A stretch of 64,000 nt of DNA from Escherichia coli (GCF_003790525.1 NZ_CP033635.1); one strand, 5' to 3'. Shown: positions 41,115-47,229, counted from the stretch's first letter. The notes: generated by a model not told the origin, from the letters alone. Translations and numbers: made by a program.

Positions 41115-41765
41115 TTATGAAGGTAACACTCCCGGATAGTGTTTCGCAATAATATCATTCAGCCTGTCAACCAGTTCTGGTTTCCTGAACCTGATGTGCG
41201 CGGAGCCTTTCTTAAAGTATCTGATGCTGAACATCTCATCTTCATAGCATTCTTTACCCTGAACAGACCGGATGTGATCATCCAGACGAATAGTGATGTT
41301 TTCCCGGTTGTCGGGGATCGGTTTGCCGCTGAACAGATGTAGCATTCTTTCCAGGTCGACGAGTCGGTCAGTCTGTTGCCCGGTGATAAGATGAAACCCC
41401 CACCGGTCCCACCTCACCAGGTTGTTGACGATAATTTTACTGCCAAATTTGCAGGGGCAATTGGTTTTGTAATTCCAGCTCAGTCCCCTGAAGACGTTGA
41501 TCACCCCTCGCTCAAACACCTCATCCTTATTCTGGTGTAGTTGTTCAAATGTGATCAGAATGTTCGCTTCACTGATTTCCGGAAAATTATCGTACTCCAG
41601 TGACCGGTACCATGTATCACGGGCCTGTGCATCCATTAAGGAAAGCATCCCTGAACGTTGCATCAGGTCACGCCAGATTTCGCGGTCAAGATTCCGGGTA
41701 ATGGCTTTCATTGCTGTTTCTGGTTTCTCCATCAGCCAGCAACCACAGCGAAAATTCTGTTTCAT
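41115..41765 (-). CDS. island-associated hypothetical protein (DUF4942-like, from memory)
   Basis: 216-aa ORF, last gene of the minus-strand CP4-like operon. Confidence 0.5.
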   Translation of the reverse strand: MKQNFRCGCWLMEKPETAMKAITRNLDREIWRDLMQRSGMLSLMDAQARDTWYRSLEYDNFPEISEANILITFEQLHQNKDEVFERGVINVFRGLSWNYKTNCPCKFGSKIIVNNLVRWDRWGFHLITGQQTDRLVDLERMLHLFSGKPIPDNRENITIRLDDHIRSVQGKECYEDEMFSIRYFKKGSAHIRFRKPELVDRLNDIIAKHYPGVLPS

Positions 41766-42040
41766 CGCCCAGTCCGGGGCGGCTTTACCGCCAATACTTT
41801 CCGTCAGTGCTGAGATTTCTGTCAGTTGCCGGATAAGCGTGTCGATTTGCAGCAGTGTACTCTTTCGTACAGCCAGGATGTGTCTGATACTTGTGGAACA
41901 GATAACGGCTGTATGTCCGTTGACCGCGTTCGGGGGGGGATTGTGATATATGACATTATGGGGTTTCCTTTCGGTTTATAAACGAAAACGCCAGCTCTGT
42001 TCAGGCTGGCGTCAGGAGAATGAAGTCTGGTGAGTGAGAT

Positions 42041-42466
42041 TCACCGGTTCTGGTGCAGAAGTTGCAGTTGGTGCAGGGTACGGATATCCTCCCTGGCCTG
42101 TTCAATACAGGGCAGCAGTGCTGCCGAATCCGTTTTATCCTCATCGTTGTCGAAAATAATTCCGGACCCGCAGTCGATATTGTCCTGCAGCCACGCAATG
42201 AGGATATCCAGCGCTGTTTCAGTGGTTAATGGCATCACGCTCTGTATCACTGTATTGTCTTCCGGCAACTGATGAGAGCTGGCAGAAGTCGCCGGTGTTT
42301 CGGTAGCGTCACGTTCATCCACCACGCGGAGTGAATAACCGTATTCAGCGACCTTGTTAATCAGTTCAGTGAGCTCAACACCATCAATGTCAACGACAAT
42401 TCGCCCTATATTCAGTGCCTGTACGTTAACGCTGTCTGCTTCCAATGTCAGGGCCAGTTTCATCAT
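42041..42466 (-). CDS. island-associated hypothetical protein downstream of cbtA
   Basis: 141-aa acidic ORF whose start overlaps the cbtA stop. Confidence 0.5.
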
Positions 42467-42837
42467 TTCGCCTCCGGATACTTACCCAGGGTAATGTTAT
42501 TTACCGTTCTGTAATTGTCGCGGGTCATCAGGCCGGTCGCCCTGCGAGCCCGGAGGATATCGATGCTGTTTATTAACTGAGAGCGGGTACAGGCGCTGAA
42601 TCCCGGCTGGTCGGTACGTACCAGCGCGTATTTTTCCACGAGAAAGTTCACCGCATCACACAGTGAAATGCCCGCTTCAATATGCTGCTCAATCACACGT
42701 TCATCCGCGAACGGTGTGTCATTCAGCGCGAGGCCGTAGTGCTGGTCCAGTAACCGGGTGAGCAGTGTCTGCCAGATGGTGACGGGAGACGGGCAGCACG
42801 ATGCCTCCCGTACATGCGTGTCGGGTAATGTTTTCAT
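42463..42837 (-). CDS. cbtA: CbtA/YeeV-family toxin (cytoskeleton-binding toxin)
   Basis: 124 aa matching remembered YeeV/CbtA (...[86 protein letters not shown]...). Confidence 0.85.
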
Positions 42838-42926
42838 AATGAAGATTTTCCTGATATGCAGAGATAAAAAATGGGACAGTGGCGTGGTGAAAACACCAGG
42901 CCGGAGCAGAAGATTATTCTGATGAT

Positions 42927-43295
42927 TTACTTTTTCGTTTCGGGCGTCGGATAAACAGCCAGATAAACGTAACCACAGGAGCCGAGGGTGTCGGCTTCAC
43001 AGGTCAGCCCCTTCGCATACAGTGTCACGGTATGCTGATGGCGGGGATTCAGTTCACCGCTGGTGAGCATGAGCTCCAGTTGTTTCATCAGCAGCGGAAA
43101 GGCCTGGTCCGGATGGTACGCATCCGCATCTCTGAACCGGCCTCTGATACCGGCACGGTCGGCAAGGTAATGCAACCGGTTACCCTCCTGCACCAGACGT
43201 GCCCCGAAACAGGGCGTCACGGTGCAGGGCAGTCCCCACCAGAGGCGGTCGTGATTGTCGTCGTGATGCGTTGTCCCGGGGAGTGTGTCTGACAC
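42927..43295 (-). CDS. cbeA: CbeA/YeeU-family antitoxin
   Basis: matches remembered YeeU ([48 protein letters not shown]...); GTG start at 43295 preceded by GAGGA; track ORF extends further upstream. Confidence 0.8.
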
Positions 43296-43344
43296 GATAA
43301 AATCCTCACAGAAAATCGTTGAATGATAGTTTAACTTTGACAGG

Positions 43345-45259: not shown

Positions 45260-45340
45260 GAGATAACACCTTAAATAACAAATAAATGTGTGTTTTTCAG
45301 GAACGAAAGCTGAATGATTCCCTCACTCAGGGAAACGGCA

Positions 45341-46159
45341 TCAGCGCATGCTCTCCAGCAGCGTTTCTGCCATCACCCACAATGCGCGGTTGAGTTTTAT
45401 ATCGGTATCAATGCTGTGAATGGCCCGGGTATGGATACGTTTTCCTTTTGCACTGCGACCGGAAATCCCGCCTTTCAGCATATTCTCCTGGATGGTCTGA
45501 TAAGCACTCCACAGGTCCTTACCGTAATCCTCCCGGCGTCGTGGTGTCAGAATGTCGGCGGTGGTGACGGGCTGATGTTCGTCACCATAACGGTAAGTCA
45601 GTGCCGCCTGTGCCAGCGCCTGGCGTGCCGGTGGCGGCAGGACCAGCGACTGCATGGCATCACGCTTCTCCTCTATCCGGTCAAACACGCCCACCACCTC
45701 GTAAGCCCCTTCAATGACTCTGTCCACCACATTTCCCCGGTGCGGAACACGCACTTCCCCCAGAGACTGACCGCAGACGCATCCGTTCTGGCAGACGAAC
45801 CTGAAGTAACCCGGCAGCATCTGGTAGCTGGAGGTACCGTCATGGGAGTTCAGCAGGATGATTTCAGGGACATGTTGTCCGTTTATCTCCCCGTCACGGC
45901 GCAGACGCAGCATGTGTTTGGTATACCCCCGGCGGCCCGGGTCACGTACGCGGGTCTGGCAGGCGAAGAAGGGCTGAAAGCCTTCCCGCTGCAGGCTTTC
46001 CAGCACGGTGATGGTGGGGATGTATGTATAGTTCCGGCTCCGGGAGGTGTGTTTATCTTCCCCGAAAATCCCGGGCACATGGTGCATCAGCTCTTCACGG
46101 GTCAGCGGACGGTCACGGCGTATCTGGTTCGCATAACCAAAACGACTGGCTAATCGCAT
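45341..46159 (-). CDS. DUF932-family protein (YafZ/YfjQ-like)
   Basis: 272-aa ORF co-directional with the island operon; family from memory. Confidence 0.6.
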   Translation of the reverse strand: MRLASRFGYANQIRRDRPLTREELMHHVPGIFGEDKHTSRSRNYTYIPTITVLESLQREGFQPFFACQTRVRDPGRRGYTKHMLRLRRDGEINGQHVPEIILLNSHDGTSSYQMLPGYFRFVCQNGCVCGQSLGEVRVPHRGNVVDRVIEGAYEVVGVFDRIEEKRDAMQSLVLPPPARQALAQAALTYRYGDEHQPVTTADILTPRRREDYGKDLWSAYQTIQENMLKGGISGRSAKGKRIHTRAIHSIDTDIKLNRALWVMAETLLESMR

Positions 46160-46202
46160 ACTTTGCTCCTTATCAGTGGTTAAGACTGAATGACGTAATC
46201 AA

Positions 46203-46239
46203 TGAAAAAGCCGCGTCTCACGGAGAAGACGCGGCCTGA
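46203..46239 (-). terminator. Rho-independent terminator downstream of the GTPase gene
   Basis: gccgcgtct/agacgcggc hairpin followed by a T-run on the minus strand. Confidence 0.6.
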
Positions 46240-46344
46240 TGGATGAAATGAATGAGGGTTTACCGAAGCCCTTCAGCATTGTGGTGACGCAACCGGAAAT
46301 GCGTTTCCTGGTTATCGCCGGGGCCGGTCAAAAAGCGGGGACAT

Positions 46345-47229
46345 TCAGAACAGGCGATCCCACAGTGTGATCAGCAGGCGGATAATGCGATCACGGGCTT
46401 TGCGCAGAAGCTGCAGCATCCAGGCCGGAAAGCTGAACCGGGCAATGGCAGCGTCAAAACTCTGGCCGATGGCGTCACCAAAAGCCTGCTGTGCGTGTTG
46501 CTGATCCTGCGCAGTGCGCTTTTCATTCCGGATATGCGAATAAACCGCGCTGGTTGCCTGTGGTGGCAGGGCGTGGATCATCAGAGACACAAATGCCGGA
46601 AGATTCCAGCCGGCAGGAGCGGCTATGGGGAGTACCGGAAATGATGAAGGGAACAGGGTTGCCACCCGGGCTGTCACCGTCGCCAGTGAGAGTTCCTGCT
46701 GACGGGATGGCGTGCTGCTCTGGTTGTTCCATTCTTCAGCCGGGTGGATGCGATCGGCATGGCTGAGAACAAACAGAAAACGCGAGGGATCGGCACCTTC
46801 ATTCAGTAAAAACTGATGCATGGCGATGTCGGCAGCATACGCACGTTCATCAGCCCGCAGGATCCAGATAATCAGATCCAGTTCGGGCAGTAACTGACTG
46901 TAAAGTGCCCGGTATTCCTGATCATGCTGTGGTGTTTCGCCAGTGCCGGGCAGATCGACCAGCGTCATTCTTCGTTCACCGGGCTGAAAGGTAAGACGAT
47001 GAGCCTGACGGGTGCAGCCGTTCAGCGGATGCGTGGCGCAGACACGGGACTGAAAAATGGCATTGCACAGGCTGCTTTTTCCGGCACCGGATTTACCCAT
47101 AATGCCAATAACGGGTTCGTACTGAATGACGCTGCGAAGATGTTCAAGGATTTTCTGGCGAATTTCTTCAGGAAGAAAGGTCAGATGTGACTTTACGTGT
47201 GCGGAGAGGGAAGAATGGCTGAATGACAT
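46345..47229 (-). CDS. YeeP/YkfA/YfjP-family GTPase
   Basis: 294 aa with P-loop GIMGKSGAGKSS and DLPG switch motif; first gene of the minus-strand CP4-like operon. Confidence 0.8.
   Translation of the reverse strand: MSFSHSSLSAHVKSHLTFLPEEIRQKILEHLRSVIQYEPVIGIMGKSGAGKSSLCNAIFQSRVCATHPLNGCTRQAHRLTFQPGERRMTLVDLPGTGETPQHDQEYRALYSQLLPELDLIIWILRADERAYAADIAMHQFLLNEGADPSRFLFVLSHADRIHPAEEWNNQSSTPSRQQELSLATVTARVATLFPSSFPVLPIAAPAGWNLPAFVSLMIHALPPQATSAVYSHIRNEKRTAQDQQHAQQAFGDAIGQSFDAAIARFSFPAWMLQLLRKARDRIIRLLITLWDRLF

Follow-up and report, generated by a model that had tools for sequence, protein, structure and literature searches.

The CP4-type elements of Escherichia coli K-12 (CP4-6, CP4-57 and CP4-44) carry the toxin-antitoxin pairs YkfI/YafW, YpjF/YfjZ and CbtA/CbeA, together with RadC-like proteins and, in CP4-6 and CP4-57, antirestriction proteins. 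The toxins CbtA, YkfI and YpjF bind FtsZ at its H6/H7 loop and stop cell division, and CbtA binds MreB as well (PMC5624674, PMC5371832). The cognate antitoxins prevent the toxicity, and neither partner autoregulates (PMC5624674, PMC5371832). The antirestriction proteins YafX and YfjX, as well as the ArdB protein of a pathogenicity island in uropathogenic E. coli CFT073, act indirectly in vivo to relieve type I restriction (families IA-ID; PMC2836571). For the RadC domains found in mobile elements, genomic context has been used to argue for a nucleic-acid-processing role (PMC5512222). Here, we describe a related block of ten genes at positions 41115-47229 in a stretch of 64,000 nucleotides from E. 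coli (GCF_003790525.1, NZ_CP033635.1), hereafter the window. We assign a probability of roughly 0.9 to the reading that this block represents the conserved set of accessory genes at the end of a CP4-type island, meaning an island with a tyrosine integrase that is inserted at a tRNA gene, and that it forms the setC-proximal end of a large island of this kind at selC. The features of the block and its surroundings are as follows.

47330-48553, plus strand: divergent, AT-rich open reading frame (ORF) of 407 amino acids, beyond the block (ORF list)
46345-47229, minus strand: GTPase of the YfjP/YkfA/YeeP family, 294 amino acids (Pfam MMR_HSR1, E=2e-14; Dynamin_N, E=7e-10)
46208-46237, minus strand: candidate intrinsic terminator, a perfect 12-bp stem-loop followed by UUUUUCAUU (terminator scan and folding)
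45341-46159, minus strand: DUF932 protein, homolog of YfjQ/YafZ (Pfam DUF932, E=6e-52)
44780-45259, minus strand: ArdB/KlcA-type antirestriction protein (Pfam Antirestrict, PF03230, E=2.4e-37)
44288-44764, minus strand: RadC-like JAB protein, homolog of YeeS and YfjY/LfgB (Pfam RadC, PF04002, E=5e-45)
44004-44225, minus strand: DUF987 protein, homolog of YeeT (Pfam DUF987, E=4e-39)
43345-43989, minus strand: protein of 214 amino acids, homologs of which in other E. coli genomes are named DUF8835 or "antitoxin of toxin-antitoxin stability system" by the Prokaryotic Genome Annotation Pipeline (PGAP) (ORF list)
42927-43295, minus strand: antitoxin of the CbeA/YeeU family, 122 amino acids with a GTG start; the longest ORF extends to 43415 (Pfam CbeA_antitoxin, PF06154, E=5.8e-53)
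42463-42837, minus strand: toxin of the CbtA family, 124 amino acids (Pfam CbtA_toxin, PF06755, E=3.1e-63)
42041-42466, minus strand: ORF of 141 amino acids, an in-frame fusion of a DUF5983 remnant and DUF957 (Pfam DUF5983_N, E=2.5e-27)
41115-41956, minus strand: frameshifted DUF4942 gene, listed as an ORF at 41115-41765 (Pfam DUF4942, E=1.7e-68)
40964-40979, minus strand: 16-bp direct repeat that duplicates the selC 3' end, TTCGACTCCTGTGATC, at the setC-proximal edge of the island (alignment to K-12 and pattern search)

The ORFs listed over 38000-50000 tile the span exactly with ten minus-strand genes, as the sequence-only reading of this DNA had claimed. It named nine genes, and Pfam provides matches for nine of the ten ORFs (E-values from 2e-14 to 2e-68), all of which pass the curated cut-offs and lie far beyond chance. 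The tenth ORF, which it left unnamed, is the 214-amino-acid gene at 43345-43989. In the translated GTPase the P-loop is intact (GKSGAGKS) and is accompanied by a DLPG motif. The RadC-like protein contains the intact metal-binding (JAMM) motif of JAB metalloproteases, HxHx7Sx2D, HNHPSGEVTPSKAD, scores 150 bits against TIGR00608 (cut-off 134 bits) and matches the PDB structure 2QLC with an E-value of 5e-25. The antirestriction ORF matches 2WJ9 over its full length (E=1e-101) and KlcA, 2KMG, with an E-value of 4e-21. The entry 2WJ9 is titled only "intergenic-region protein", and we take it to be the ArdB protein of CFT073. The DUF932 protein has no relative in PDB.

The ten products were compared by tblastn with CP4-44, CP4-57 and CP4-6 of K-12, including yeeP-yeeW and yfjP-ypjF, and, except for those of the 214-amino-acid gene and the DUF4942 gene, matched the CP4-type families with identities from 31% to 97%. 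The closest matches are in CP4-44, with 97% identity for the RadC-like protein (yeeS), 96% for DUF987 (yeeT), 87% for CbeA and 90% for CbtA, and the order and strand logic of the genes are alike. The 141-amino-acid ORF is 60% identical over the yeeW region, and YeeW of K-12, too, breaks off after about 64 residues. In CP4-57 and CP4-6, the DUF932 protein is 75% identical (yfjQ, yafZ), the antirestriction protein 67-70% (yfjX, yafX) and the RadC-like protein 78-82%, with 78% for YfjY. The toxin-antitoxin pairs of these two elements are 61-67% identical to that of the window, which belongs to the CbtA/CbeA subtype. The order GTPase, DUF932, ArdB, RadC, DUF987, antitoxin and toxin matches that at the ends of CP4-6, CP4-57 and CP4-44. 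The identities and the shared gene order thus support the description of the block as a CP4-44/CP4-57-like module.

The chromosomal genes that precede the block are nlpA (37298-38116), yicL (38120-39043) and setC (39154-40338). In an alignment to the selC-setC region of K-12, the similarity runs from setC through the yicT/rhuM remnant to 16 bases that correspond to the 3' end of selC, after which it is lost. The pattern TTCGACTCCTGTGATC occurs a single time in the window, with none expected by chance. Since the similarity to K-12 is lost at this repeat, and since the repeat is single in the window, we place the setC-proximal boundary of the selC island at 40980. CP4-type elements characteristically occupy the 3' terminus of a tRNA or tmRNA gene and are flanked by direct repeats of it; the distal repeat of such a pair is present in the window. 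The suggestion that the block replaces the simple selC-setC junction is correct in substance, although setC is still followed by about 640 bp of K-12-like DNA, with the yicT/rhuM remnant in it, before the island begins. No tRNA was detected in the window by either ARAGORN or Rfam. The Rfam search, which applied the gathering threshold to the whole window and allowed E-values up to 1 over 40300-50200, yielded no RNA family within the block or close to it, neither an isrC-like small RNA nor tRNA-Sec. A search for repeats over 40300-50200 gave short matches at chance level only.

The closest relative among the complete genomes is the selC island of strain TUM9803 (NZ_CP135671.1, approximately 45,000-105,970), which is 98.9% identical over 40300-47400 and for which the match covers more than 99% of 40300-64000. 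This island extends for about 61 kb from the same boundary to a tyrosine recombinase that adjoins tRNA-Sec. The insertion site, a run of eight cytosines that shifts the frame of the DUF4942 gene and the DUF5983-DUF957 fusion are all as in the window. The differences from TUM9803 are minor and include a single Cys/Tyr change in DUF4942 and two deletions in the window, of 15 bp and 4 bp, located just outside the island. The 15-bp deletion is placed in the yicT/rhuM remnant, where the window differs from both K-12 and TUM9803 (positions 40300-40980 compared). The 4-bp deletion (TTCC) is directly beside the 16-bp selC repeat, so that the 23-bp selC-derived repeat of TUM9803 is shorter in the window.

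The stretch 40300-47400 was used as a query against 5426 complete E. coli genomes. Some match was obtained in 5360 of them, with a median of three and a maximum of 19 places per genome, while at least 80% of the query was found in one place in 446 genomes. At about 96% identity, the block ends islands beside the kps cluster in PK8275 and beside cadC in F374. Only 26 of 72,556 plasmid records matched the block, some of which are mislabelled chromosomes.

The toxin-antitoxin pair is arranged with cbeA directly upstream of cbtA on the same strand, at a distance of 89 bp. The toxin scores 211 bits against PF06755 (cut-off 25 bits), and the antitoxin matches the structures of YeeU, 2H28 (E=3e-75), and 2INW (E=2e-76). 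Judging from the annotation of TUM9803, the real start of CbeA is most likely the GTG codon at 43295. In K-12, the substitution F65S abolishes the binding of CbtA, YkfI and YpjF to FtsZ, and R15C in CbtA abolishes the binding to MreB; YkfI and YpjF naturally contain C15 and still block elongation (PMC5624674). The translated toxin of the window retains F65, the FtsZ determinant. Its first 20 residues differ from those of the CP4-44 CbtA, and residue 15 is a cysteine instead of R15, the MreB determinant of the K-12 protein. We considered C15 as a sign that MreB targeting had been lost and dropped this idea in view of the natural C15 of YkfI and YpjF. For the same reason, C15 represents ordinary variation within the family and is no bar to membership.

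By analogy with these homologs, the ArdB-type protein would relieve type I restriction and help a newly arrived element to establish, CbtA would block the polymerization of FtsZ and probably that of MreB, and CbeA would counteract the toxin at the level of the cytoskeleton. The pair in this copy would favor retention of the island. The block may thus contribute to both establishment and maintenance. A different role has been proposed for lfgABCDE in K-12, and if the same held here, the block would mainly be a domesticated stress-response module of the host. K-12 YfjY/LfgB reportedly acts as a protease on MqsA, which it degrades, and confers protection from oxidative, acid and heat stress (PMC10846083), and deletion of the three K-12 toxins changed the stress response (PMC5371832). 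However, the block travels with islands at several tRNA sites, occurs in multiple copies per genome and has members that often decay, and it contains an antirestriction gene, the known role of which is to protect incoming DNA (PMC2836571). We regard domestication as the main role of the block as possible, if rather doubtful, and the two roles are compatible with each other.

The GTPase has also raised the question of whether the block is an anti-phage defense system, such as one built on a dynamin-like GTPase, or a toxin-antitoxin pair that acts in abortive infection, as such pairs can do. Besides the Pfam match to Dynamin_N, the C-terminus of the GTPase weakly matches LeoBC in PADLOC (E=4e-7, with no stretch that passes on its own). 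However, PADLOC provided no match for any other protein of the block or for the neighboring 407-amino-acid protein, and the presence of ardB, an anti-defense gene, also counts against a defense function. We know of no phage-defense phenotype for CbtA/CbeA. As the weak match to LeoBC was all that PADLOC offered, we rejected a defense system as very unlikely and retain the assignment to a CP4-type accessory block. The 407-amino-acid ORF adjoins the GTPase gene in each of the four related loci that were compared (TUM9803, PK8275, F374 and EC0585). It is located in an AT-rich stretch that continues to approximately 50100, with a GC content of 0.34-0.40 in the region of the ORF and about 0.55 in the block, and its product has no match in Pfam, PHROG or PADLOC.

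Several observations weigh against the assignment or against the role that we infer from it by analogy. The GTPase is distant from its K-12 homologs, as its identity to YfjP, YkfA and the YeeP pseudogene is 35%, 34% and 31%, respectively. Both the integrase end of the island and selC would lie beyond position 64000, so that the distal repeat is the only one of these landmarks inside the window. Damage is seen in two of the ten genes, and sister copies of the block contain frameshifts in cbtA or in the DUF8835 gene as well as internal stop codons. For the role in establishment and maintenance, it is also relevant that the K-12 toxin-antitoxin genes are weakly expressed and not autoregulated (PMC5371832).

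The damage concerns the two genes at the distal end, which had been described as two trailing hypothetical genes. There are indeed two ORFs at this place, but one is a fused remnant and the other is a frameshifted gene. The 141-amino-acid ORF consists of the first 60-70 residues, approximately, of DUF5983 (YeeW-like) fused in frame to a complete DUF957, which has its own start near 42238 inside the ORF. This structure follows from the PGAP annotation of the identical TUM9803 sequence and from an alignment of the ORF to the K-12 YeeW and to the intact DUF5983 protein, which is 162 amino acids long. The DUF4942 frame is open upstream to approximately 41951, where there is no canonical start codon, while the ATG at 41956, with which the gene starts, belongs to a different frame. 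This is because the tract of cytosines at 41932-41939 (on the coding strand) contains eight residues in the window and in TUM9803, compared to nine in the intact allele of 280 amino acids in EC0585. In TUM9803, the PGAP product is 278 amino acids long and begins at a non-canonical start. The shorter tract could be a fixed lesion, a slipped-strand variant or a sequencing artefact. Together with the lesions in the sister copies, the damaged genes suggest that selection on the individual members of the block is relaxed.

The ten ORFs share a strand, several of them are separated by only 14-15 bp, and there is a 4-bp overlap (ATGA) between the stop codon of cbtA and the ORF that follows. Such an arrangement is consistent with the wording of the sequence-only reading, which presented the ten genes as one operon; a promoter ahead of the GTPase gene would then drive the transcription of a single intact unit. 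In K-12, the five-gene core yfjX-yfjY-ypjJ-yfjZ-ypjF has been described as one operon; however, it is this core from yfjX to ypjF alone that is treated as such (PMC10846083; PMC5371832), and unrelated genes are located between yfjQ and yfjX. EC0585 has two additional genes between the GTPase and DUF932 genes. In the window, the GTPase gene is followed by a gap of 185 bp that contains the GC-rich hairpin and U-run at 46237-46208, which is present in both the minimum free energy and centroid folds and placed about 35 nucleotides ahead of the ribosome-binding site of the DUF932 gene. Pattern scans identified a weaker hairpin after the DUF932 gene and a promoter-like site at 41982-41955, just upstream of the start of the DUF4942 gene, which is itself frameshifted. 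Transcription of all ten genes as one intact operon is thus unlikely, and the block probably comprises two or more transcription units.

The 214-amino-acid DUF8835 protein is the sole part of the block with residual novelty. The protein has no match in Pfam, NCBIfam or PADLOC, and no structural relative in PDB, although its fold is predicted with a predicted local distance difference test (pLDDT) score of 96. The family comprises 2967 cluster representatives (clusters at 50% identity, E-values of at most 1e-3), with homologs in Salmonella, Citrobacter and Klebsiella as well as in phages (PHROG 5162 and matches in BFVD). An alignment of 85 sequences revealed the conserved motif F-x2-Q-G-D-G-A-x-F-x-G. 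There are also natural DUF8835-CbeA fusions of 343 amino acids, which originate from a short deletion of the stop codon and the spacer. The very large size of the family, the confidently predicted fold and the natural fusions to CbeA favor the idea that the gene directly upstream of cbeA is not a passenger but encodes a third functional component of the type IV pair, such as a regulator or an adaptor. This idea is weakened by sister copies, several of which have a broken DUF8835 gene next to intact cbeA and cbtA genes, and by the K-12 pairs, which are functional without it. On balance, we think it distinctly unlikely that the protein is a third partner.

The other features of the window are located on both sides of the block. 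The island cargo at 50136-64000 includes a YagK/YfjJ gene (inovirus Gp2-like), a LacI regulator, components IIA, IIB and IIC of an ascorbate-type phosphotransferase system, split transketolase genes and insertion sequence elements. This cargo is typical of selC islands in avian pathogenic E. coli (APEC) and extraintestinal pathogenic E. coli, with matches of at least 81% coverage and 97% identity. A low-GC islet (GC content 0.35) at 6000-9400, between ilvN and uhpA, is not present in K-12 and occurs in 643 of the 5426 complete genomes. Its two plus-strand ORFs (6298-7605 and 7821-9323) encode products of 435 and 500 amino acids that are annotated as hypothetical and have no match in Pfam or PADLOC. 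The gene for istR, an Hfq-binding antitoxin small RNA, was identified at 3602-3731 on the plus strand (Rfam RF01400, 150 bits), in its expected place near ilvB. The eip/eilA/air locus, which is linked to the E. coli type III secretion system 2 (ETT2), covers 20659-36494 and is 100% identical to that of SMS-3-5. It contains the gene for a GC-rich (0.62) inverse autotransporter of 2933 amino acids (EaeX/Air), followed by low-GC genes for a type III translocon protein (YopB/SseC-like), a needle tip protein (IpaD/SipD-like) and the regulator EilA.

As a whole, the island may resemble AGI-3 of the APEC strain BEN2908; the support for this consists of the matches to APEC genomes at 81% coverage. The tkt1 island (PMC3349570) was considered as a counterpart and set aside, as it is located elsewhere, at metE-ysgA.

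At the level of the block, CP4-44 differs in that flu (Ag43), yeeR and isrC separate its GTPase pseudogene from yeeS and in that it lacks the genes for DUF932 and ArdB. The window adds the DUF8835 gene between the DUF987 gene and cbeA, and the DUF4942 gene after the YeeW-like ORF; for neither of these was a counterpart found in the K-12 elements by tblastn. In CP4-57 and CP4-6, five to eight unrelated genes separate the DUF932 and ArdB genes, compared to 81 bp in the window, where the module is more compact. As the block is found in many genomes and in the K-12 elements, the module is already known, and the sequence-only reading recognized it correctly. This copy offers nothing new beyond its correct annotation. 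The genes for DUF932, DUF987, DUF8835, DUF4942 and the GTPase are among the most widespread accessory genes in E. coli, and the family merits experimental work.

The left flank of the window (16000-37300) is 100% identical to that of SMS-3-5-type genomes. In SMS-3-5, selC is occupied by a P4-like satellite (NC_010498.1, 4081340-4092196) with psu, ogr/delta, icd and a primase-helicase, and with a SIR2-family gene beside the integrase. The presence of a true satellite at selC next to identical flanks, the historical name CP4 and the type of integrase could suggest that the block is a remnant of a P4-like satellite prophage. However, psu, delta/ogr, sid, icd and the alpha primase-helicase, all of which are present in SMS-3-5, are not annotated in the 98.9% identical island of TUM9803, and the block is nearly absent from phage records, with a match in one of 50,697 that is tiny and unannotated. 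An origin as a satellite remnant is accordingly extremely improbable, compared to that as the end of a CP4-type island. The contrast between the satellite in SMS-3-5 and the island in the window, with identical flanks, shows that selC is a site where unrelated elements are swapped. The block marks the setC-side end of a selC island that belongs to the CP4-type lineage and not to the P4-satellite lineage of the sister strains.

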